Assembly (NCBI GenBank): GCA_043805415.1
Contig: JAZDHZ010000043.1
Span: 5,844-69,843, forward strand
Direction of reading: 5' to 3'
Source: Candidatus Omnitrophota bacterium
Lineage (GTDB): Bacteria > Omnitrophota > Gorgyraeia > B26-G9
DNA length: 64,000 nt
The translations under genes and the position numbers were made by a program. Positions 6,205-59,795 of this stretch are shown one piece after another. Every line of letters starts with the position of its first letter. Position 1 is the first letter of the stretch. A model generated the notes under the pieces. It was not told the DNA's origin. It saw only the letters and a program-made list of their open reading frames with translations, and ran no database searches.

Positions 6205-9200
6205 ATGGATAAGCGAGCGCAATTAATTAAAATATGTTTAATTCTATATTGTCTTGAAGTTTTTATTCCGAATAGTATTTTTGCCCAACAATTGCCTGAG
6301 CAAACAGAGGCACAGACCGCTATTATTGAGGAATCATTCACTGATGGAAATGTGGAAACTCTGACCATTGCAGCTGACCCAGACACAATTCATTTGGAAT
6401 CAATGCTTTCTTCAGAGCAATTAGCGGAAACTTATGCGTATGCCTTTGACCTGCTTAATGACCAAGGCGCTGAGGATATAATTACTGCTTATCTTGAAAA
6501 TGGCTATAGTTTATCAGCTATTGGAGAAATCCTTAAAAATGCCAGCTTTTCTTTAGAAGATACTTTTAAGGCAATGGTTAATCATTTAGGGGAAGATTCC
6601 CTTGGGGAAATTATCGGAGCTCTGCTGGAAGCTAAATTTAAATCAGGGGATGTATTTAAAGTCGCGATAAATCACTTAAAGCAGGTAAGTCCTGAGCTTA
6701 CTGATAATCAAATTATTGAAAAAGTTTTGGGAACATCCGTAGATCCGGCTAATTTAAAAAGCTTGATGCAGGAGATTTTTATTGAAAAAATTTCCTCAGT
6801 AAGCGATCCGATTAAGTGCGATTTAGTTATAGCTATGATTGATTCGGGATTTAGCTTAAATGAAATAACTAGCGCATTAACTGAAAATGGTTTTAGTATT
6901 GATCAAATTGCTCAAATTTATAGTTTAGGCAGCATTGATATTGGTTTAACTTATGATCTATTGCTAAATACGCCGGGTTCGCAGGAAACGGATGTGATCA
7001 GAGCTTTACTTGCTTCATCTTACACTAAATCAGAAGTATTTGAGTGTATAGTCAATAAACTTTCTGGAACTAAAAGTGTTGAACAAATTGTGTCAACTAT
7101 CATGGGGCAGATTGATGTTGGCGGCCCAAGCGATGAACAATTAAACAATGCTATTGTTCTGTCTGGAGTATTACATGCTGGAGGAATAAGTATTTCTGAA
7201 ATAAGCGGAGCTTTTCTTTCCGCGGGATTTAATTTAGACAATGTTGTGGCTGTGCTTAACGGGATTGGAACTGCTCTGGATGATGCTTTTGCAACTTTGC
7301 TAGGCGCTAATGGCGGACAGAGTATTGCTGATGTGGCAGCAGCTTTAATCAGTAATGGATTTGATGTGCATGCTGTTTTCGCGCTAAGCACTGCAGAATT
7401 TAAAAACCAGGGAGTCGGCTTAACTCAGGTTGTCCAGGCACTTATTGGAACCATTGATCCTGAGAAAGGGCCGACTAAAAACCAGACAGATAATTCGCGG
7501 TTATTAGTAGATGTGTTGCTTAACGCAGATGACTCTTTACAGAACATAGCTGAAGCTTTTATTGCCAATGATTTTGGTTTGGAGAATACGGCTAAATTAT
7601 TTAAAAGCAATGGTGTATCAGCAGTGGATACTTATAATGCTTTAGTTGGGGCTACGGAAGGTGAATACGCGAGCGTAGCAGTGGCAATGACTACTATTGG
7701 TTTTACTGGCAGCATTGTTATTGAGCTTGCGGTAACAGATCTTAAGGCTCATGAATTCAGTAACGCGGATATTATGTCAATGCTAATTGGAACTGTAGAA
7801 GAAGGTAAAATTCCTACTAACCCTCAGATAACTATAGCGGGTTGCTTAACAAAAATTTTAATTGATCAGGGCGTTGCTTTGCCGGAAATCGGAGAAAATC
7901 TTATTAGCCAAGGCTTTAATTTAAATTATACAGCTAAAATATTTAAAAAAGCTGATGTTGATATCACTGAGGCATTTTCGGTTATGATTAAATTGGACGC
8001 CGAGGCAGGCTTTGATGTTGTATGCGCAGATTTGAAAGCCGCCGGCTACAGGGCCGCGGATATATTTAAAGAAGCGGTAACTGCCCTGCAGGAGCAAGGG
8101 CATGGTGTCAGTGAAATTATAAATATTTTAATCACTGCGGTTGATTCTGGAAAAAATGCTACAGGCGCGCAAATTAATAATGCTGGCGACTTGGTAAAGT
8201 ATTTAATTTCCGGGGGCAGCGCATCACAGGAAATTTGCGAAGGGCTCTTGGCTATTAATTTTTCTTTATCTGACATCGCGAAGGTAATGCGAAAAACAAG
8301 CGTAGAACTTGATGTTGTTTTTGCGGAAATCCTTGCTCTGGGTGGCGGGCAGGACATTGGTTTGGTTTCTGAGGCGCTTATTGCCGGAAGCTATGATCGT
8401 AATAGTGTTTTTCAAATAGCAATAGGAGAATTAAAAGCTCAAGATTACAGTACAGCCGCGATTATAAATACGCTAATCGGCGTGGTTGATCCCGAAGAAG
8501 GACAATCCGTTTATCAGAAAACTAATGCCCCATACTTGCTGCTGAGTTTATCTTTGGATGGGGGAAATTTAGAAGAAATCTGCGGCGGTTTTCTTAGTGC
8601 TGGTTTTAGTTTAGACGAAATAGCGTCAGCAACAAAAAAAGTCAACATTGATCTTATCCAAACCTATTCCGCGTTATTAAACGCGAATGGCGGTCAAGAT
8701 TCTGAAGCTGTGATTAACGCGCTTAATAATGCCGGATATGAAATATCGACCTTGTTCGAATTAATTGTTCCAGAGCTTCAGGGTAAGGATTACAGTACAG
8801 CGCAGATAATAACTTTCTTAATCGGCAATGTTAATCCAGTATCTGGACTTTCCGCTAAACAATTAGAAAGAGCGCATATTCTGGTTTATGTTCTAAGCGA
8901 AACAGGGGAATCTATAGAAAATATTTCCACAGCTATGGCTACTGCTGGATTTAAAGTCGAAGACAATGCGAAAATACTTTATCGGAAAATTGGAGATGCT
9001 GCTGAAGCCTACAATCTATTAACTAGTACTTACGGCCAAGAAAGTGTCACTACCATAGCTTTAGGAATGATTAATGCTGGATATGATATAGAATCTGTGC
9101 TCAATATAATTATTCCTATTTTCGAAGATCAAGAACTTTCCATGCCGGATATTATTAGCACAATTATCGGAGTAATCGCTTCAGAAAATAAGCCGACCTC

Positions 9201-21536: not shown

Positions 21537-22607
21537 TTAACCAACTAATTTCTTTTTAAGATTTTCCGGGTCACGCGTAACTTGCATTGCTTCATCAGTG
21601 CCAATAAGCTTACGTTTGAGCAGCTCCTGCAATGCCTGGTCAAGGGTTTGCATGCCTTGTTCCCGGCAGGTTTCAATAACCGAATAGATTTGATAAGTTT
21701 TGCCTTCGCGGATTAAATTTCTGATCGCTGAATTAACCACCATAATTTCCACAACCGGCACCCGTCCTTGTTCATCAGAGGTGATCACCAGTTGCTGGGA
21801 AACAACTGCTTGTAGAGTAATTGAAATCTGAGTGCGGATTTGCTGTTGTTGATGGGGCGGAAACACGTCAATTATTCGATCTATGGTTTGCACCGCGTCA
21901 GTAGTGTGCAAGGTAGCAAGCACCAGATGCCCTGTTTCCGCGGCAGTAATCGCGATGCTGATTGTTTCCAGATCACGCATTTCACCGACTAGGATTACAT
22001 CCGGGTCCTGGCGTAAAGTTTCCCGCAGGGCAAAAGCAAAAGAAGAAGTGTCTTGACCGATTTCCCGCTGGGAAACAAGCGATTTTTTATGTGAATGAAA
22101 ATATTCAATCGGATCTTCAAGCGTAATAATGTGACAACTGCGTTCGGCATTGATTAAATCAACAATCGCCGCTAAGGTAGTTGATTTTCCTGATCCAGTT
22201 GCTCCGGTGACCAAAATAAGTCCCCGTCGTCTGCGGGCAATATCTTTTAAAATCGGAGGCAATCCTAAATCAGAGAAACTTAAAATCTGGTTGGGAATAA
22301 ATCTTAAGGCCAAAGCTATGCTGCTGCGCTGGATATAAAGATTTATCCGAAAGCGGCAGAAAAGGTCACGTTTTTCATTTAAATAAGAATATGAAAAATC
22401 CAGTTCATGCTCTTTTTCAAATTTTTCCCTGCGGCTATCATTTAAAATTTCATAAGTTAAGCGTTTGACTTCATCCGGAGTAAGTTTTTCTTTATCAGTA
22501 AAAAACAATTCACCATTAATCCGTATGGCCGGAGGCGCGCCGGCTACTAAATGTAAATCTGAAGCATGTTTTTCAGTAACTTCATCAATCAGGTCAAAAA
22601 TTGTCAT
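21537..22607 (-). CDS. pilT: type IV pilus retraction ATPase PilT
   Basis: Walker A GATGSGKSTTLAA, Asp box, His box, and PilT-specific AIRNLIREGKTYQI motif; 356 aa. Confidence 0.85.
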   Translation of the reverse strand: MTIFDLIDEVTEKHASDLHLVAGAPPAIRINGELFFTDKEKLTPDEVKRLTYEILNDSRREKFEKEHELDFSYSYLNEKRDLFCRFRINLYIQRSSIALALRFIPNQILSFSDLGLPPILKDIARRRRGLILVTGATGSGKSTTLAAIVDLINAERSCHIITLEDPIEYFHSHKKSLVSQREIGQDTSSFAFALRETLRQDPDVILVGEMRDLETISIAITAAETGHLVLATLHTTDAVQTIDRIIDVFPPHQQQQIRTQISITLQAVVSQQLVITSDEQGRVPVVEIMVVNSAIRNLIREGKTYQIYSVIETCREQGMQTLDQALQELLKRKLIGTDEAMQVTRDPENLKKKLVG

Positions 22608-22618
22608 GGATTGTCTCC

Positions 22619-24208
22619 TTAGAAAAATATAATATCGCTTATCAATACCTTTGTCAAGAAATCGGGAAATTCTAACATTACTATTTTTAATAATTTACCT
22701 ACAGCTTCTTCGGGAATATTTATTACACAAGTATGCCAGCACTCATCAGGTTCCAACGGATATTTTGAATTAGTTTTCACAAAGCTTGTTGGTTTGTCTT
22801 TTTCCGGAAGAGTAAATAGTTTTAAACTAAGTTCAGTGCTTGAGTCTTGGCTGGTTTTTGGATCAAATTCAATTTTGAATCTTAAAAGCAGTCTATGCGG
22901 CAGCTCAAAAGGAGAGACTTTTTTACTGACAATATTAAAATCAGAGATGTAAAACCGATTAGACCCAGAGCTGGCAAGCTTTGTCAGAATCATTCCCGGG
23001 TCTTGAAAAACCACACTAGCTGAAGAAGTCCAGTAACTTTCTTGTCCGCTGGTAAAATTTGCCCGGTATTTTATCATTTTATTTTCCAGAGGAATCATTT
23101 CCTCCCCAAGATCAACAAAACCCAGACTGTCAAGTTCCTCAGGAGAGGGAATATCGCTGCGAATAAGTTTATTCTGTAATTGCTCGGGCTTGACTGATTT
23201 AGTAACCACTTCTAAATCAGATATTATATTTTTTTGATACAGTCTTTGCAGCGCCTGATCCAGGGTCTGCATGCCATCAGCACTGCCGCTTTCAATCGCG
23301 GAGTAAATCTGGTGATATTTTTTTTCCCGAATCATATTTTGAATCCCTTGGGTAGAAAACATGATCTCCAAGGCCGGAACCCGGCCATTGCCGTCATGGC
23401 GCATAACCAATTGCTGACAGATGATTGCTTGTAAAACAACTGATAGTTGTGTTCTGATCTGGTGCTGGGTATTTGACGGAAATGCGCCGATTAAGCGCGT
23501 AATCGTTTGAATGGAGTCAGTGGTTGCCATTGTGCCAAAAACAAGAATACCGGTTTCTGCTGCCTGCAGAGCAATATTAATGGTTTCAATATCGCGCATT
23601 TCGCCAATCATGATAATATCCGCGTCTTGGCGAATTGCTTCTCTTAAGGCGCAAGGGAAGCTGATTGAGTCAGTACCGATCTCTCTTTGGGAAAAAAGCG
23701 CTTTATTCGGCTTAAAAAAATACTCAATCGGATTCTCTAAAGTAATGATATGGCAGCCGCGTTTTTGATTTAAAACATCAAGAATAGCAGCCAGGGTGCT
23801 GGTTTTTCCTGATCCGGACGGGCCGCCGATAATAACCAGGCCTTTTTTTAATTGTGTGATTTTATCAATGTTTTCCGGTAAATTAAGTTCTTTGATTGTC
23901 GGCGTATGTTCAGAAAGCGTGTGAAACACACCATTGGTTAAGCCTTTTTGTTTGTAAAAAGTTACCCGAATCCTGCCAATTGATTCCAGAATATAGGTAA
24001 AATTCACGGAATTATCCAGCTTAAATGTTTTGGCTTGCGTCTCGCTCATCAGCGAAACAGCTAGGGTGTCGATTTGCTCACAATCTAGTTTTGTTGAACT
24101 TTCAGGAATTAACCGTCCGTTAATATTAAATAAAGCAGGCAGGCCGGCACTCAGATGCATGCTGGTGGCTTTTTTTTCCTGCATTGTTTTAACTAATTGT
24201 TTGAGCAT
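22619..24208 (-). CDS. PilT-family ATPase paralog with about 185-aa C-terminal extension of unknown function
   Basis: Core GGPSGSGKTSTLAA Walker A and GIQNMIREKKYHQI motif; extra C-terminal region (aa ~345-529) has no recognisable motifs. Confidence 0.75.
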   Translation of the reverse strand: MLKQLVKTMQEKKATSMHLSAGLPALFNINGRLIPESSTKLDCEQIDTLAVSLMSETQAKTFKLDNSVNFTYILESIGRIRVTFYKQKGLTNGVFHTLSEHTPTIKELNLPENIDKITQLKKGLVIIGGPSGSGKTSTLAAILDVLNQKRGCHIITLENPIEYFFKPNKALFSQREIGTDSISFPCALREAIRQDADIIMIGEMRDIETINIALQAAETGILVFGTMATTDSIQTITRLIGAFPSNTQHQIRTQLSVVLQAIICQQLVMRHDGNGRVPALEIMFSTQGIQNMIREKKYHQIYSAIESGSADGMQTLDQALQRLYQKNIISDLEVVTKSVKPEQLQNKLIRSDIPSPEELDSLGFVDLGEEMIPLENKMIKYRANFTSGQESYWTSSASVVFQDPGMILTKLASSGSNRFYISDFNIVSKKVSPFELPHRLLLRFKIEFDPKTSQDSSTELSLKLFTLPEKDKPTSFVKTNSKYPLEPDECWHTCVINIPEEAVGKLLKIVMLEFPDFLTKVLISDIIFF

Positions 24209-53920: not shown

Positions 53921-55315
53921 ATGGATAATTCAATGGATTTTTACGCGGAAATGCGGGCCAATACGAGAATTCGTTCGAGGATCAGCGTTTCTTATCAAAT
54001 TATTAATCCTGATGGATCGCTGCAGACATCAGCCAAGACCTTTGCCCGCGACATTAGTTCAACCGGGATTTTTATTGTTTTAAAAAAGCCTCTGGATCTT
54101 AATACTAAACTGCGGTTTGAATTCAGGCTGCCTAAGATCAACAATCTTATTGAAATAATTTCTCACGTTGTGCGGATTGAAGAAATTGAGAATAGTGAAT
54201 TTGGAATCGGCATTCTGTTTGATCAAATCCTAAATGAAAATCAGGATGAAATTCTCAAATGCATAGAGTCAATGGACCTTGTCCGATTACTCCAAATTAC
54301 TGCTCAGAAAAAAGCATCGGATTTGCATCTTACCTATAATCGTCCTCCGATCATGCGTTTACACGGAAAACTGGTGCCAATGGAATTAGAGGCATTGGGA
54401 ACAACTGAACTAAAGAATTTAATTTTCAGCATACTTAGTGATGAGCAAATCGCGAGATTTGAAAAATTCAAAGAATTAGATTTTGCTTTTTCGCCTCACC
54501 CGGATTTGCGGTTCAGAGCGAATGTGCATATGCAGCGGGGAAATGTGGAAGCTACTTTCCGGGTAATCATGCCGGACCTTAAAACCATCCAGGAATTAGG
54601 ACTGCCCAGCGTTGTGGAAAAACTCGCTTTATTAAAAAAAGGAATTGTGATTATTGCCGGCCCAACCGGATCAGGGAAAACAACTACGCTCGCGGCAATG
54701 GTGGACATCATTAATCGGCAAAGACAATCAGTTATTATTTGTTTGGAAGATCCGATTGAATATATCCACGCGAATTTAAATTGTATTATTAAGCAAAGAG
54801 AAATCGGTACAGATACGCTTTCTTTTTCCGTTGCTTTAAAACGGACTTTAAGACAAGATCCTGATGTTATTGTTGTCGGGGAGCTTTTAGACGCGGAAAC
54901 AGTGCGCACAGTTATTACCGCAGCGGAAACCGGACATCTGGTTCTCACTTCTTTGCATGCGCCTGATACGATTCAGGCAATTGACCGCTTGATCAGTATT
55001 TTCCCTCCGCAGCAGCGGCAGCAAGCATGTATTCAGGTAGCCAATAGTTTGCAAGGTATTGTTACCCAGTCACTTATACCAAAAAAAGATCGCGAAACAA
55101 GAGTTTTGGCAACAGAAGTAATGATCATGACTGACGCGATTCGTAATCATATCAGAGAGGGGCAGACCATTCAGATTCCCTCGACAATTCAGACCGGAGC
55201 ACGCTATCAAATGCATACTATGGCTGAGAGTCTTAAGCGATTATATTATGGACATATGATTTCCAAAGAAACAGCTATTGATTACGCGCCTGAGCTTGCG
55301 GAAATAATAACTTGA
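53921..55315 (+). CDS. PilZ-domain / PilT-family ATPase fusion
   Basis: N-terminal PilZ motifs RIRSR...DISSTGIF; then Walker A GPTGSGKTTTLAA and PilT-type AIRNHIREGQTIQI. Confidence 0.7.
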   Translation: MDNSMDFYAEMRANTRIRSRISVSYQIINPDGSLQTSAKTFARDISSTGIFIVLKKPLDLNTKLRFEFRLPKINNLIEIISHVVRIEEIENSEFGIGILFDQILNENQDEILKCIESMDLVRLLQITAQKKASDLHLTYNRPPIMRLHGKLVPMELEALGTTELKNLIFSILSDEQIARFEKFKELDFAFSPHPDLRFRANVHMQRGNVEATFRVIMPDLKTIQELGLPSVVEKLALLKKGIVIIAGPTGSGKTTTLAAMVDIINRQRQSVIICLEDPIEYIHANLNCIIKQREIGTDTLSFSVALKRTLRQDPDVIVVGELLDAETVRTVITAAETGHLVLTSLHAPDTIQAIDRLISIFPPQQRQQACIQVANSLQGIVTQSLIPKKDRETRVLATEVMIMTDAIRNHIREGQTIQIPSTIQTGARYQMHTMAESLKRLYYGHMISKETAIDYAPELAEIIT

Positions 55316-55377
55316 CAGTTTTTGTGTGATATGATAACATTTTAACAGTAGTTGTTGTTAACAAGAAGGATACGAAA

Positions 55378-55863
55378 ATGATAGATAAAATTTTAGAAGG
55401 TAAGATTACGCAGTTAAGTGATTTTGTTGAGTTGTGGGCTTCATTTTATGAACTATATAAACGGGCTACAGATCAACAAACGTTCACTGAAGAGGAAGAA
55501 AAAAACTTTTTGGAATTAAAAAGTAGCTTAGCAAGAAAATATCAAGGTTTAATGGATTCGCTGGGGATCAAGCCAACTGCTGAAGATAGAACTTTTGATG
55601 TAATCTCGCAAGTTATGAGTTTAAAAAGCATTACCACTTTATCTCCGCTGCAGCTGGAAAAATTAGAAAATGATTGGCACAATTCTTATATTACTTTAAA
55701 TAAGATAATGGGTTCTTTGGAAAATAGAAAAGGCGAGTTGGCTAAAATTAATGTTTTCGCGTTAAAATGTAAGCGTTTATTGCTTAATCCTTTTTTCGCG
55801 TTGATCTTAATTATAATAGTTATATCGTTTATCTATTATTTTATTAAAAACTTTTTCTCTTAA
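55378..55863 (+). CDS. hypothetical protein with C-terminal TM helix
   Basis: ORF track; helical, C-terminal LLNPFFALILIIIVISFIYYFI anchor. Confidence 0.3.
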   Translation: MIDKILEGKITQLSDFVELWASFYELYKRATDQQTFTEEEEKNFLELKSSLARKYQGLMDSLGIKPTAEDRTFDVISQVMSLKSITTLSPLQLEKLENDWHNSYITLNKIMGSLENRKGELAKINVFALKCKRLLLNPFFALILIIIVISFIYYFIKNFFS

Positions 55864-55913
55864 ATTAACCCTAAATTTGTTCTGCCAGTATTGTTGAAAG
55901 GAGGACTCCGAAA

Positions 55914-56186
55914 ATGACTAAGAAAGATATAGTGCTCAAGATTGCGACTGAAACAAAGATGAAGCAACAGGACATTAAGAAAGTTGTACAAAAAGCGCTT
56001 GACGCGATCATCGATAGTCTAGTAAATGGTCAAACCGTAGAATTACGCAATTTTGGTATTTTTAAAGTTAAATCCAGACGGGGAAGAACTGGCCGTAATC
56101 CTAGAACCGGTCAGGTAGTTCCAGTACCTCCAAAAAAAGTTGTAGTTTTTAAGCCAGGACTGGAAATGAAAAAACTGGTAAAATAA
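55914..56186 (+). CDS. hup: DNA-binding protein HU
   Basis: 90 aa; ELRNFGIFKVKSRRGRTGRNPRTGQVVPVP arm signature of HU/IHF. Confidence 0.85.
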   Translation: MTKKDIVLKIATETKMKQQDIKKVVQKALDAIIDSLVNGQTVELRNFGIFKVKSRRGRTGRNPRTGQVVPVPPKKVVVFKPGLEMKKLVK

Positions 56187-56221
56187 TTATCAGTTCAGAT
56201 TATAATTTGCTAATATTACAT

Positions 56222-56249
56222 AAAACCTCAATTACAGAATTGGGGTTTT
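56222..56249 (+). terminator. rho-independent terminator after hup
   Basis: aaaacctcaatt-acag-aattggggtttt: 12-bp stem (one G:U) ending in T4. Confidence 0.5.
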
Positions 56250-56271
56250 ATGCTTAAATTTGTAGGTTCAG

Positions 56272-57546
56272 ATGAAAATAAACGCCCTTAAGGGAGTTCA
56301 AGACATACTTCCCGAACAAATTTCTCAATGGAATTATCTGCATGATCTTGCCCAAGAAATTTTTTCCTGCTATGGATATAAGCAAATAATTATTCCGATT
56401 ATTGAAGAAAGCGCGCTTTTTACCAGAAGTATCGGGCAGCAAACCGATATTGTGGAAAAAGAAATGTATTCTTTTGTTGATCGGGGAATGCGGAATATTT
56501 CCTTGCGCCCGGAAGCCACTGCCTCAGTTGTCAGAGCTTATCTCGAACATGCTCTGGATAAAGAAGGTTATTCAAAACTTTTCTACAGCGGCCCGATGTT
56601 CCGAGGAGAAAAGCCGCAAGCCGGAAGAAACCGCCAATTTTATCAAATCGGAATAGAAGCTTTGGGCTCTTATAATCCCTTGCTTGACGCTGAGGTTATA
56701 AAACTTGCCGTGGATTATTTAAAAGCAATTGGGCTTAAGGATTTTAAGCTGTTGATTAATTCTGTGGGTACAACTAAAGATAAGCATGATTTCGGCAGCG
56801 CGCTTAAAATTTTTCTCCAGGATAAACAGGACAGTTTATGCGACAGCTGCAAAGCGCGCTATGAGCGGAATGTTTTAAGAATTCTTGACTGTAAAAGCCG
56901 CAACTGCAAAAAAGTTCTCCAAGACGCTCCGATTATTTTAGATAATTTGTCCGAAGAATCTAAACATGATTTCGCCCGGTTAAAATCCGGATTAGACGAA
57001 TTAAACGTTGAATATCAAGTTATGCCTTATCTTGTCCGCGGCCTGGATTATTATACAAAAACTGTTTTTGAAATTACTCACGATAAACTCGGCGCGCAGA
57101 ATACGATTCTTGCTGGAGGAAGATATGATAATTTAATCAGTGATTTAGGGGGACAGCCAGCCGGCGCGGTCGGCTTTGCCTGCGGAGTAGAAAGACTAAT
57201 GCTTGCCGCAAACGCTGATTTAGTAAAATTCCCCGAAACCAATAAACCCGCGGTATTTGTGATCGGCCTAGGCAGTAAAGCCCATAGCAAAGCTTTCGCG
57301 ATTGCTGACCAATTAAGGCAGCAGAGGATTGTGACTTATATTGATTTTCAGGATCGGTCTTTAAAAGCCCAAATGCGCCAGGCAAATAAGCTTGATTGCG
57401 CATATGTTTTAATTCTCGGCGAAGATGAGTTAAAAAATAATAATATTCAGTTAAAAAATATGCGGCAAGGCACGCAGCAGCTGCTTTGCCTGGATTCTTT
57501 GGCAGAACATGTAAAAACCATTATTCTAAAACACTCAGCCACATAA
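56272..57546 (+). CDS. hisS: histidyl-tRNA synthetase
   Basis: Class II motifs (FRGEKPQAGRNRQFYQIG motif 2, GGRYDNL motif 3), C-terminal anticodon-binding domain; 424 aa. Confidence 0.85.
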   Translation: MKINALKGVQDILPEQISQWNYLHDLAQEIFSCYGYKQIIIPIIEESALFTRSIGQQTDIVEKEMYSFVDRGMRNISLRPEATASVVRAYLEHALDKEGYSKLFYSGPMFRGEKPQAGRNRQFYQIGIEALGSYNPLLDAEVIKLAVDYLKAIGLKDFKLLINSVGTTKDKHDFGSALKIFLQDKQDSLCDSCKARYERNVLRILDCKSRNCKKVLQDAPIILDNLSEESKHDFARLKSGLDELNVEYQVMPYLVRGLDYYTKTVFEITHDKLGAQNTILAGGRYDNLISDLGGQPAGAVGFACGVERLMLAANADLVKFPETNKPAVFVIGLGSKAHSKAFAIADQLRQQRIVTYIDFQDRSLKAQMRQANKLDCAYVLILGEDELKNNNIQLKNMRQGTQQLLCLDSLAEHVKTIILKHSAT

Positions 57547-57679
57547 TTTTATTGTGTTTGTAAGCTTAGGATTAAATTATTCTCTTGACAAGCATATGTG
57601 ATGTTTTATAATAGAGATATAGATGGAAAATAAAGTTTTTTTAAAAGTTTAAAAAGCTTTTAAACAATGGAGGTATAGT

Positions 57680-58057
57680 ATGGATGCTAGGAATTTTCAG
57701 GATGAAAAAAGGCAGTATAAAAGAGTTGCTTTGCCTGGTGTAAGCTGTAGTTTTAAATTGCTTGACCCTCGGACATGGTCTACTTACCTGGATAAAACTC
57801 TCAATGATGTTCAGGATATAAGCATTGGCGGACTGCGGTTTAGCACAAAAAATGAACTTAGCCTCAAAGCACCGGTTGGTGTTGATATAAAGATTAATCC
57901 CAGTCAGGAAGCAATCCGCACTTTTGGTAGAGTCGCCTGGATTAAAAAAGAAAATCCGGCAGATGCTGACTATTCAGTAGGAATAAGCTTTTCCTGGTGG
58001 AAAAATGACGAAGAAAAAAAATTAGTATACGATGCTATCTCAAAACAAATCTCCTAA
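57680..58057 (+). CDS. stand-alone PilZ domain protein
   Basis: RQYKRV (RxxxR) and DISIGGLRF (DxSxxG) c-di-GMP-binding motifs; 125 aa. Confidence 0.65.
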   Translation: MDARNFQDEKRQYKRVALPGVSCSFKLLDPRTWSTYLDKTLNDVQDISIGGLRFSTKNELSLKAPVGVDIKINPSQEAIRTFGRVAWIKKENPADADYSVGISFSWWKNDEEKKLVYDAISKQIS

Positions 58058-58081
58058 TAAAATCAAGAGGCCTGACTTAAA

Positions 58082-59581
58082 ATGAAAAATCCCTACCAAG
58101 AAGAATTATTTGCTAAGCTGGTTGATCATCCTTCATGGCGGCATGAGTCAAAGTCATTGAGTCTTATAATTGGCCCAGCAATTTGGTTAATTATCCCTTC
58201 AGGGATTGAAGAACCGATTAAATCGCAAAAAAACCAATTTGTAAATATTGAACAGGAAAATGAATTTCGGCCAATTATTTTGTCTTTACTCAGCGAAGCA
58301 AAAAAAACTAATCATATCCAAAAAGTTTCGATTAGCGATGGAAGTAATTTTTATTGCATTCCGATAAATCGCAAAGATGAGTCTTATGGATATGTATTGA
58401 TTTGTAATTTAGCGACAACTATTCCGGAAAAAATCTTCAGATTAATTAATTCATACACGTGCACAACAATTGAAAATGTGCAAAAAGAATTAGAAGTAGC
58501 CAAATTGTATGAAACAATCCGCCCAAAAACAATCGCTCTGTCTACAGTGCATACGGTAGGCAGAATTATTAGCTCCACGCTGGAACTAGAAGAGCTTTTG
58601 CCCAGAATTGCTCGTCTTAGTTTGCAGGTTTTACGCGCGCAGCGCTGCTGCATCATGCTTGTTGATAAATATAAACGTAATCTTGTCTCACATGCTGTTG
58701 TTGATGTGCAAAATAAAAATGTTAAGCAAAAGACGCTTAAAATCGGCGAGGGCATTCCGGGAAAAGTTGTGAAAAATGGAAATGCTATTGTCGGTCCGAA
58801 AATTTTATGCGTTCCGCTTATTGCTGAAGAGCATATAATCGGAACAATAACCATGTCGCAACGTTTGAATAATAAGCCATTTGGAATTTTTGATAAAGAA
58901 ATATTAACTACTCTTTCCGAGCAAGCGGTAATCGCGATTAAAAACGCGCAGTTATATGATGAACAGGAAAAATTAACGCTCAATAGCATTAAAGCTTTGG
59001 CTTCAATTTTAAGTTCAGGGGTCGCGGATAATTATGGCCGCTCTAATCTATTTATCAATGTGATTATGTCAATCGGCATGGAATTAAAATTAGGTTCTGA
59101 TCAAATGCGAATGCTTTACTACGCGGCAATACTGCACAATGTGAGTCAAATGGGTCTGCCGAAAAAAATTCTGAGAAAGTCAACAAAGCTTACTGGTAAG
59201 GATTATGAAATTATTAAAGAGCAGCATATTAAAGGTACTCAGCTGATAACGCCCATAGGCGGCAGACTAAAAGCTGTTCTGCCGATTATAATTCATCATC
59301 ATGAGCGTTATGATGGAAATGGCTATCCCAGCGGGCTAAGGGGAGAGGATATTCCTTTAGGCGCTCGGATTTTAGCAATTGCTGATTCATTTGAAGCCAT
59401 GATCTCAAAACGCCCCTATCGGAGAAAATTGTCGATTTCTCAGGCAGTTTCAGAAATAGTTAATTCCAGCGGTGAGCAATTTGACCCAGTAATTGTCGAC
59501 GCTTTTGTCCGGGTAATAAAGCGGTCAAAGAATAAAATTTTTAAAAATAAAGGAAAAGCCTGGATTTGGAAAAAAATGTAG
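58082..59581 (+). CDS. GAF domain + HD-GYP domain protein (HD dyad degenerate: HN)
   Basis: C-terminal HHHERYDGNGYPSGL HD-GYP signature; the position matching the canonical LHDIGK reads LHNVSQ; central GAF-like region. Confidence 0.7.
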   Translation: MKNPYQEELFAKLVDHPSWRHESKSLSLIIGPAIWLIIPSGIEEPIKSQKNQFVNIEQENEFRPIILSLLSEAKKTNHIQKVSISDGSNFYCIPINRKDESYGYVLICNLATTIPEKIFRLINSYTCTTIENVQKELEVAKLYETIRPKTIALSTVHTVGRIISSTLELEELLPRIARLSLQVLRAQRCCIMLVDKYKRNLVSHAVVDVQNKNVKQKTLKIGEGIPGKVVKNGNAIVGPKILCVPLIAEEHIIGTITMSQRLNNKPFGIFDKEILTTLSEQAVIAIKNAQLYDEQEKLTLNSIKALASILSSGVADNYGRSNLFINVIMSIGMELKLGSDQMRMLYYAAILHNVSQMGLPKKILRKSTKLTGKDYEIIKEQHIKGTQLITPIGGRLKAVLPIIIHHHERYDGNGYPSGLRGEDIPLGARILAIADSFEAMISKRPYRRKLSISQAVSEIVNSSGEQFDPVIVDAFVRVIKRSKNKIFKNKGKAWIWKKM

Positions 59582-59795
59582 GATTAGCGACTGAAAAAGC
59601 CTGCTGTTTTTCTGCTAATAATAGCTTATTATTCTGGATTGCGGCTTTAATTTTGATTTTATAAGTTATTTATTAATAAATAACTTATAAAATAAGTCGA
59701 TTATTATTTAAAAACATGTTGTTATTTGCTGATTTTTTGATATAATAATTTTAATAAAATATTTTTAAAGAATTGCTGATACAGGAGGTATCTCA

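Follow-up and report, generated by a model that had tools for sequence, protein, structure and literature searches.

Control of type IV pili by cyclic diguanylate (c-di-GMP) is documented for extension ATPases, namely MshE and PilB, which respond through the MshEN domain, PilF, and the FimX-PilZ-PilB system. In the MshE/PilB-type ATPases (N-terminal MshEN/T2SSE_N domain) and in PilF (GSPII-B), the motor and an N-terminal c-di-GMP receptor reside in one polypeptide. Here we analyze a 64-kb stretch of a Candidatus Omnitrophota metagenome-assembled genome (hereafter, the window), which encodes a 464-amino-acid (aa) protein of the same layout, a PilZ domain fused to a PilT ATPase, as well as a stand-alone PilZ protein of 125 aa and a 499-aa GAF-HD-GYP protein with a degenerate metal site. 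Open reading frames (ORFs) for the three genes lie exactly where an initial annotation of this DNA had placed them. The two larger products each show 100% identity to an NCBI protein from a Candidatus Omnitrophota metagenome-assembled genome, which for the fusion is P0001. We favor, with moderate confidence, an interpretation in which the fusion would be a retraction ATPase modulated by c-di-GMP and the other two proteins would form a separate, non-hydrolyzing c-di-GMP receptor pair.

The fusion protein differs from its closest described counterparts in both halves. MshE, PilB and PilF are extension or secretion ATPases with the MshEN fold, whereas the fusion combines a retraction-type PilT with a PilZ barrel, and it would be a functional analog of the MshEN ATPases without being a member of the MshEN family. 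A PilZ fold working with a type IV pilus ATPase is also present in FimX-PilZ-PilB of Xanthomonas and in the PilZ protein PA2960. There, however, PilZ is a separate protein that lacks the c-di-GMP motifs and acts on the extension ATPase PilB, whereas the PilZ domain of the fusion is canonical and is attached to PilT. In the YcgR and MotI brakes, a canonical PilZ domain similarly couples c-di-GMP to a motility motor, but these proteins work in trans, with the rotor or stator of the flagellum as their target, whereas the PilZ domain of the fusion would act in cis on a pilus ATPase.

For the 499-aa protein, the best match is PmGH of Persephonella marina (PDB 4mcw; E 2e-33 by sequence, Foldseek E 5e-20, TMt 0.76), with which it shares the GAF-HD-GYP core. 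PmGH is active and has a complete trinuclear iron site, whereas the Omnitrophota protein has Arg, Asn and Gln at three of the ligand positions and an extra N-terminal sensor. In this respect it resembles DvhD, HnoD, ECA3548 and PA2572 (YN-GYP), which have the HD-GYP fold without the full set of metal ligands. DvhD, with SQ in place of HD and MN in place of HH, binds c-di-GMP without metal and does not hydrolyze it (PMC13090378). The other degenerate HD-GYP proteins HnoD (SE/QLE) and ECA3548 (a PilZN-PilZ-HD-GYP fusion, HT/ANE) likewise bind c-di-GMP or partner proteins without hydrolysis. The 499-aa protein differs from these receptors in having HN with HHE retained and in its PocR-like and GAF sensors. 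Moreover, DvhD is a membrane receptor, whereas the 499-aa protein is cytoplasmic and soluble, and ECA3548, which shares with the gene pair the combination of PilZ and a degenerate HD-GYP domain, has the two fused, whereas in the window PilZ is encoded by a separate adjacent gene.

The PilZ-PilT fusion protein

The 464-aa protein had been annotated as a full PilZ domain, carrying the RxxxR and DxSxxG motifs, fused to a PilT core, and profile searches bear this out. Residues 15-116 match the Pfam PilZ domain, and residues 120-459 match the PilT/PilU family TIGR01420 with 411.9 bits (cut-off 319.1), covering model positions 2-341 of 343. Both PilZ proteins of the region pass the PF07238 gathering score of 22.5 bits (42.8 bits for the fusion, 35.9 bits for the stand-alone protein). 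In the fusion, the RxxxR motif corresponds to R12-R16 and the DxSxxG motif to D44-G49. The PilZ assignments rest on profiles, since a regular expression for the motifs gives five six-frame matches, of which two are real. A recent duplication as the origin of the two PilZ domains of the region was considered and rejected (BLASTP E 1.3).

The ATPase part contains the Walker A (GPTGSGKT), Asp box (EDPIEY), Walker B (DPDVIVVGE, including the catalytic Glu) and His box (GHLVLTSLHA) motifs, all of them invariant or nearly so in the family. The AIRNLIRE motif is specific to PilT and is not found in PilU; residues 406-413 of the fusion, AIRNHIRE, differ from it by one substitution. The best Foldseek match is Geobacter PilT4 (TMt ~0.87, 44-45% identity), the identity to Pseudomonas aeruginosa PilT is 42%, and no solved structure covering the PilZ part was found in the Foldseek search. 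The ATPase core is 45% identical to the canonical PilT encoded in the window. No Pfam match to T2SSE_N/MshEN was obtained for the fusion, whose N-terminus is occupied by PilZ.

The same architecture recurs in Omnitrophota in more than 100 clusters at 90% identity, or about 27 at 50%. It is present, as a PilZ+T2SSE protein of 450-500 aa, in 52 of the best 120 matches to the fusion, down to ~54% identity; an exhaustive profile search aligned the ~27 representatives of the 50%-identity clusters over their whole length, and a profile of the divergent members adds ~65 further clusters. All taxon-named matches are assigned to Omnitrophota/Omnitrophica, to the 'PVC group' or simply to 'bacterium', and the homologs are annotated only as PilT/PilU. 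A scan of genome contigs with the fusion alignment was uninformative on its spread, since among the matches listed it retrieved plain PilT only (query residues ~118-461). PilZ-PilT may be regarded as a conserved predicted domain architecture.

In the 52 homologs with this architecture, the residues that contact the ligand in PilZ domains are nearly invariant (R16, D/N44 and G49 in 52/52, R12 and S46 in 51/52), in contrast to the PilZ domain in its entirety, whose mean column conservation, 0.54, is far below the 0.81 of the ATPase. Most of the divergent representatives of the 50%-identity clusters have kept both motifs as well. Motifs that stay nearly invariant in an otherwise less conserved domain are the pattern expected from selection for ligand binding, and this supports the prediction that the fusion binds c-di-GMP. 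In an AlphaFold2 (AF2) model, the PilZ part (predicted local distance difference test, pLDDT, ~80-89; 78 overall) begins with the RxxxR arm (residues 1-18), which is disordered, as expected for an apo PilZ domain, and continues with a beta-barrel (21-103) and a C-terminal helix (108-117). About two residues separate the latter from helix 1 of the N-terminal domain of PilT.

No paper describing a fusion of PilZ with PilT or T2SSE was found in the literature searched, although one may exist elsewhere; the fusion is thus apparently undescribed. A review table lists Vibrio cholerae PilT as a protein that does not bind c-di-GMP (PMC10333796), so the fused PilZ domain would add a new input to a canonical PilT.

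Two groups of observations concern the neighborhood and the wider family of this protein. Directly 3' of the fusion gene lies a gene for a 161-aa protein with a C-terminal transmembrane helix and no Pfam or NCBIfam match, which is strongly conserved in the same place in the related loci L001, L004, L005, L007 and L008; it is a possible membrane partner of the fusion. Outside the window, many PilT matches of ~710-775 aa (P0035-P0120, P0397-P0442) show two matched stretches and are apparently tandem PilT-PilT proteins; the few with a taxon name belong to Myxococcota/Myxococcales, Bradymonadia, Lentisphaeria, Alphaproteobacteria and Pseudomonadota. N-terminal extensions of other kinds, 100-400 aa long, are carried by many of the PilT proteins that the exhaustive search retrieved.

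The degenerate HD-GYP protein and its small PilZ neighbor

Pfam domains of the 499-aa protein are GAF (residues 168-288) and HD_5/HD-GYP (residues 305-470, 128 bits). In the AF2 model (pLDDT 84) they are preceded by an N-terminal alpha/beta sensor-like domain (pLDDT ~85-90) and a long helix, and a second long helix connects GAF to HD-GYP. The N-terminal domain is probably PocR-like, judging by relatives: in homolog P0199 it matches PocR (PF10114) with 25.6 bits against a cut-off of 23.9. The Foldseek search ranks PmGH first, followed by the c-di-GMP-bound structure of DvhD (9rbz, E 4e-11), and also retrieves 4r8z.

The initial annotation noted that the HD dyad is replaced by HN while the GYP motif HHERYDGNGYP is intact. 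The latter is confirmed by alignments and a motif scan. The Asp-to-Asn change is real and does not reflect an offset Asp, since in pairwise alignments H352-N353 stands opposite HD in each of the three active enzymes compared, PmGH (4mcw), V-cGAP3 (5z7c) and PA4781 (4r8z); Bd1817 (3tm8) matches the family at the profile level (E 7e-9). A sequencing error is excluded by the conservation of N353 in all 27 homologs with at least 57% identity. The damage to the metal site is, however, more extensive than the single change annotated. In PmGH numbering, H189 (the GHS position, by profile alignment to V-cGAP3) corresponds to R320, D222 to N353, and H250 to Q381, so that the first and second of these ligands are lost and the third is lost or shifted; H382, adjacent to Q381, could substitute if the helix register shifts. 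H221 (H352), H276 and H277 (H406 and H407) and D305 (D435) are kept, and E185 is replaced by a residue that is still acidic, D316. Although phmmer at first paired H189 with D316, the family-profile alignment to V-cGAP3 led us to reject this and to assign H189 to R320 instead.

In addition, Lys of the HDxGK motif is replaced by Gln and KPG by KST, the Lys of the latter (K366) being kept. Other conserved features include E408, G414-Y415-P416 and R444-P-Y446-R447. The last segment fits RxY[K/R], described as the c-di-GMP specificity motif of HD-GYP proteins. The catalytic metal site of this protein has probably been lost, and the protein would belong to a known kind, the degenerate HD-GYP receptors.

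Comparison with 120 full-length homologs, a top-scoring subset drawn entirely from Omnitrophota, places this protein in a family with a varied metal site. All seven core ligands are present in 8 of the 120; the others follow at least four patterns of erosion, PHDHHH[S/G], RHN[Q/K/H]HHD, HP[E/D]HHHD and PHDHHHD. The first-His column contains Pro in 67, Arg in 29 and His in 19 sequences, and the column of PmGH H250, filled by Q381 in our protein, has His in 98. By comparison, K366, Y415, R444, Y446 and R447 are nearly invariant. In the N-terminal sensor, as compared with homologs P0148-P0240, four cysteines at least 96% conserved in a distant clade are mostly lost in the clade of the 499-aa protein, in parallel with the loss of the HD Asp there.

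The 125-aa PilZ protein, encoded immediately upstream, has both canonical motifs (RQYKR at residues 11-15, DISIGG at 46-51), which its orthologs in L001, L007 and L008 retain. The distance between the two genes is 0-24 bp in the window and in these three loci, that is, everywhere both occur. The sequence TTGACA-16-TATAAT upstream of the PilZ gene is the sole perfect match in the 64 kb, with 0.07 expected by chance. In locus L006, the slot of the small PilZ gene is taken by a single-domain REC gene (7578-7991), with 9 bp between it and the HD-GYP gene that follows, in a split RpfG-like arrangement, which suggests that PilZ and REC may be interchangeable input modules for the HD-GYP protein. At the other end of the HD-GYP gene, a conserved ORF of ~88-93 aa overlaps or abuts the stop codon in L006, L008, L090, L091 and L092; at this place the window has just a 32-aa ORF (59566-59664).

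Gene organization of the region

The three genes had been viewed as one c-di-GMP control layer next to pilus ATPases, a description that the region supports only in part. The fusion gene lies directly 3' of dnaE, as annotated, with a gap of 14 bp, whereas the PilZ/HD-GYP pair is separate and has its own consensus promoter-like sequence. Between the two stand the HU gene, a terminator-like hairpin and hisS, as well as the promoter-like site of the pair, and both the fusion gene and the HD-GYP gene occur without the others elsewhere. The other two PilT-family genes of the window are ~30 kb away, at 21.5-24.2 kb. The gene organization therefore supports two units rather than a single module.

The order dnaE, PilZ-PilT, 161-aa gene, HU, hisS, (dGTPase), PilZ, HD-GYP, SPOR is the same in L001, L008 and L007, and in L007 this holds with an HD-GYP protein that is only 47% identical. 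Most genes of this shared order are housekeeping genes, and its conservation thus amounts to block synteny; the trio occurs together only in some lineages, within this block. It is an evenly balanced question whether the three genes are merely unrelated neighbors, kept together by the synteny of dnaE, HU, hisS and SPOR, with no local c-di-GMP module at all. In agreement with such an explanation, the fusion gene is elsewhere found by itself, with ubi genes, mla/radA genes or a pseudopilin gene as neighbors, the HD-GYP gene of other Omnitrophota resides in this housekeeping block with neither PilZ nor PilZ-PilT in its vicinity, and the elements that intervene between the units in the window point in the same direction. 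On the other hand, the co-location persists in L007 despite the divergence of its HD-GYP protein, the HD-GYP gene and that of the small PilZ protein form a tight pair, and all three products have c-di-GMP-related domains, so that they probably read the same cellular pool.

Table 1. Features of the fusion gene, the PilZ/HD-GYP pair and other loci in the 64-kb window
Feature	Position	Strand	Evidence or remark
dnaE stop	53906		fusion gene starts 14 bp further on
PilZ-PilT fusion gene, 464 aa	53921..55315	+	Pfam PilZ 42.8 bits, T2SSE 137 bits, TIGR01420 411.9 bits
PilZ domain of fusion, residues 1-118	53921..54274	+	RxxxR 53954-53968, DxSxxG 54050-54067
PilT ATPase core of fusion, residues 119-464	54275..55312	+	Walker A GPTGSGKT 54659-54682
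Gene of 161-aa tail-anchored protein without assigned family	55378..55863	+	directly downstream of fusion gene
Terminator-like hairpin 3' of HU gene, between upstream unit and hisS	56219..56252	+	consensus scan only
Sigma-70 promoter-like site TTGACA-16-TATAAT	57585..57612	+	68 bp upstream of small PilZ gene
Stand-alone PilZ gene, 125 aa	57680..58057	+	RQYKR 57710-57724, DISIGG 57815-57832
Sensor-GAF-HD-GYP gene, 499 aa, degenerate metal site	58082..59581	+	Pfam, alignments, AF2
N-terminal alpha/beta sensor-like domain of HD-GYP protein, residues 1-115	58082..58426	+	AF2 secondary structure
GAF domain of HD-GYP protein, residues 168-288	58583..58945	+	Pfam GAF, GAF_2, GAF_3; Foldseek GAF structures
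HD-GYP domain, residues 305-488	58994..59545	+	HD_5 128 bits; alignments to PmGH, V-cGAP3, PA4781, DvhD
HD-GYP key codons	R320 59039-59041; H352-N353 59135-59140; Q381 59222-59224; HHERYDGNGYP 59297-59329	+	
Canonical PilT gene, 356 aa, type IV pilus cluster	21537..22607	-	TIGR01420 483 bits; AIRNLIRE present; not adjacent to fusion
Gene of 529-aa PilT-family paralog, degenerate His box, C-terminal extension	22619..24208	-	TIGR01420 380 bits; alignment
Gene of joined PilM and PilN, 531 aa	28168..29763	+	type IV pilus cluster
ORF of 1740 aa	6205..11427	+	weak partial match to UPF0180

The type IV pilus cluster of the window spans 21.5-30.9 kb, and no PilB is encoded within the 64 kb. Next to the canonical pilT gene of this cluster, the 529-aa paralog has both His-box histidines replaced (GILVFGTMATTD) and a C-terminal extension of ~190 aa that has no Pfam match; it may be a non-canonical or inactive PilT/PilU-like subunit. 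In the same cluster, PilM and PilN are joined in a single protein. The sole match of the 1740-aa ORF, to UPF0180, does not make a convincing family assignment.

Proposed mechanism and its alternatives

In the interpretation we favor, the first unit is a third PilT-family paralog, in which c-di-GMP most likely binds to the RxxxR arm and to the barrel face that carries DxSxxG. Binding would alter the conformation, the activity, the hexameric state or the recruitment of the PilT motor; since the PilZ helix runs nearly straight into the PilT N-terminal domain, an effect on the hexameric motor would be expected. In this way, c-di-GMP would act directly on pilus retraction. Such direct gating, predicted in the initial annotation from the domain architecture, is a reasonable inference; we favor inhibition at high c-di-GMP, the direction being a guess. 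The second unit would be a two-gene operon for the small canonical PilZ protein and the PocR-like-GAF-HD-GYP protein. The latter, with three of its seven core ligands substituted (two His by R320 and Q381, and Asp by N353) and its nucleotide contacts kept, most likely binds c-di-GMP without hydrolysis. It would serve as a receptor or scaffold integrating inputs from the PocR-like and GAF domains, with the small PilZ protein as an input or partner, and the two units may also communicate with each other. A non-catalytic c-di-GMP sensor, one of the two possibilities raised in the initial annotation, is supported by the analogy to DvhD, HnoD and ECA3548.

Several observations weigh against this scheme. 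The AF2 monomer of the fusion has a predicted template modeling (pTM) score of 0.57, at which the placement of PilZ relative to the ATPase is unreliable, so that neither a gating mechanism nor an occlusion of the interface by PilZ can be read from the model. As annotated initially, the window contains no diguanylate cyclase: neither GGDEF nor EAL domains were detected by Pfam scans of its ORFs and a six-frame motif scan, which bears on the source of c-di-GMP in this genome; GGDEF domains have been reported elsewhere in Omnitrophota. Some PilZ proteins are known to work by protein contacts alone. Finally, the HD-GYP protein retains H352, H406, H407, D435, the acidic D316, and H382 beside Q381, and thus it may retain some activity through a diminished or modified metal centre.

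According to the corresponding alternative, the HN-GYP protein would still work as a phosphodiesterase under the control of its PocR-like and GAF sensors, using a modified metal centre that is probably mono- or binuclear. It gains some plausibility from the retained ligands just listed, from the ability of Asn to ligate metals, from the known heterogeneity of HD-GYP metal sites, in which some substitutions are tolerated, and from the eight fully canonical members of the family. Nevertheless, we regard it as unlikely, because three of the seven core ligands have changed together and the changes are fixed across the clade, HDxGK and KPG are both altered, and the HD-dyad variants HnoD, ECA3548 and DvhD are inactive, as PA2572, with its YN-GYP, reportedly is.

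An alternative for the fusion is that its ATPase powers another type II/IV-like machine of Omnitrophota rather than retraction of a type IVa pilus. The fusion gene is indeed away from the pilus cluster, a canonical PilT is already present in the genome, and unusual loci related to type II secretion systems and type IV pili have been reported in Omnitrophota beside giant genes. However, pilT genes are often orphans, the protein passes the TIGR01420 cut-off, keeps AIRNxIRE and is structurally closest to PilT4 and PilT, and one divergent fusion member adjoins a pseudopilin gene; we consider another machine improbable. Least probable of all is a PilZ domain that serves for protein interaction or localization without sensing c-di-GMP, as in PA2960 and XAC1133, which contact PilB and FimX: non-binding PilZ proteins that regulate type IV pili do exist, and the domain is less conserved overall than the ATPase, but such proteins lack RxxxR and DxSxxG, whereas the fusion family, its divergent representatives included, has both nearly invariant.

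A PilT protein with a covalently attached canonical PilZ domain would place retraction under direct second-messenger control in a compact, single-polypeptide system. The fusion family is conserved throughout Omnitrophota, in which pili are believed to be important for contact with host or prey. One may tentatively speculate that these bacteria, which are ultra-small and probably either predatory or dependent on a host, possess a dedicated retraction motor gated by c-di-GMP and a phylum-wide PocR-GAF-HD-GYP family whose enzymes repeatedly turned into c-di-GMP receptors, together forming an attach/retract switch at host contact. The HD-GYP family itself, in which canonical members stand beside those with eroded sites while the nucleotide contacts are invariant, adds a well-populated natural series to the few degenerate HD-GYP receptors described and is useful for studying the change from enzyme to receptor. 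If the proposed role of the fusion is true, PilZ-PilT would be the first retraction ATPase to contain a second-messenger receptor of its own.

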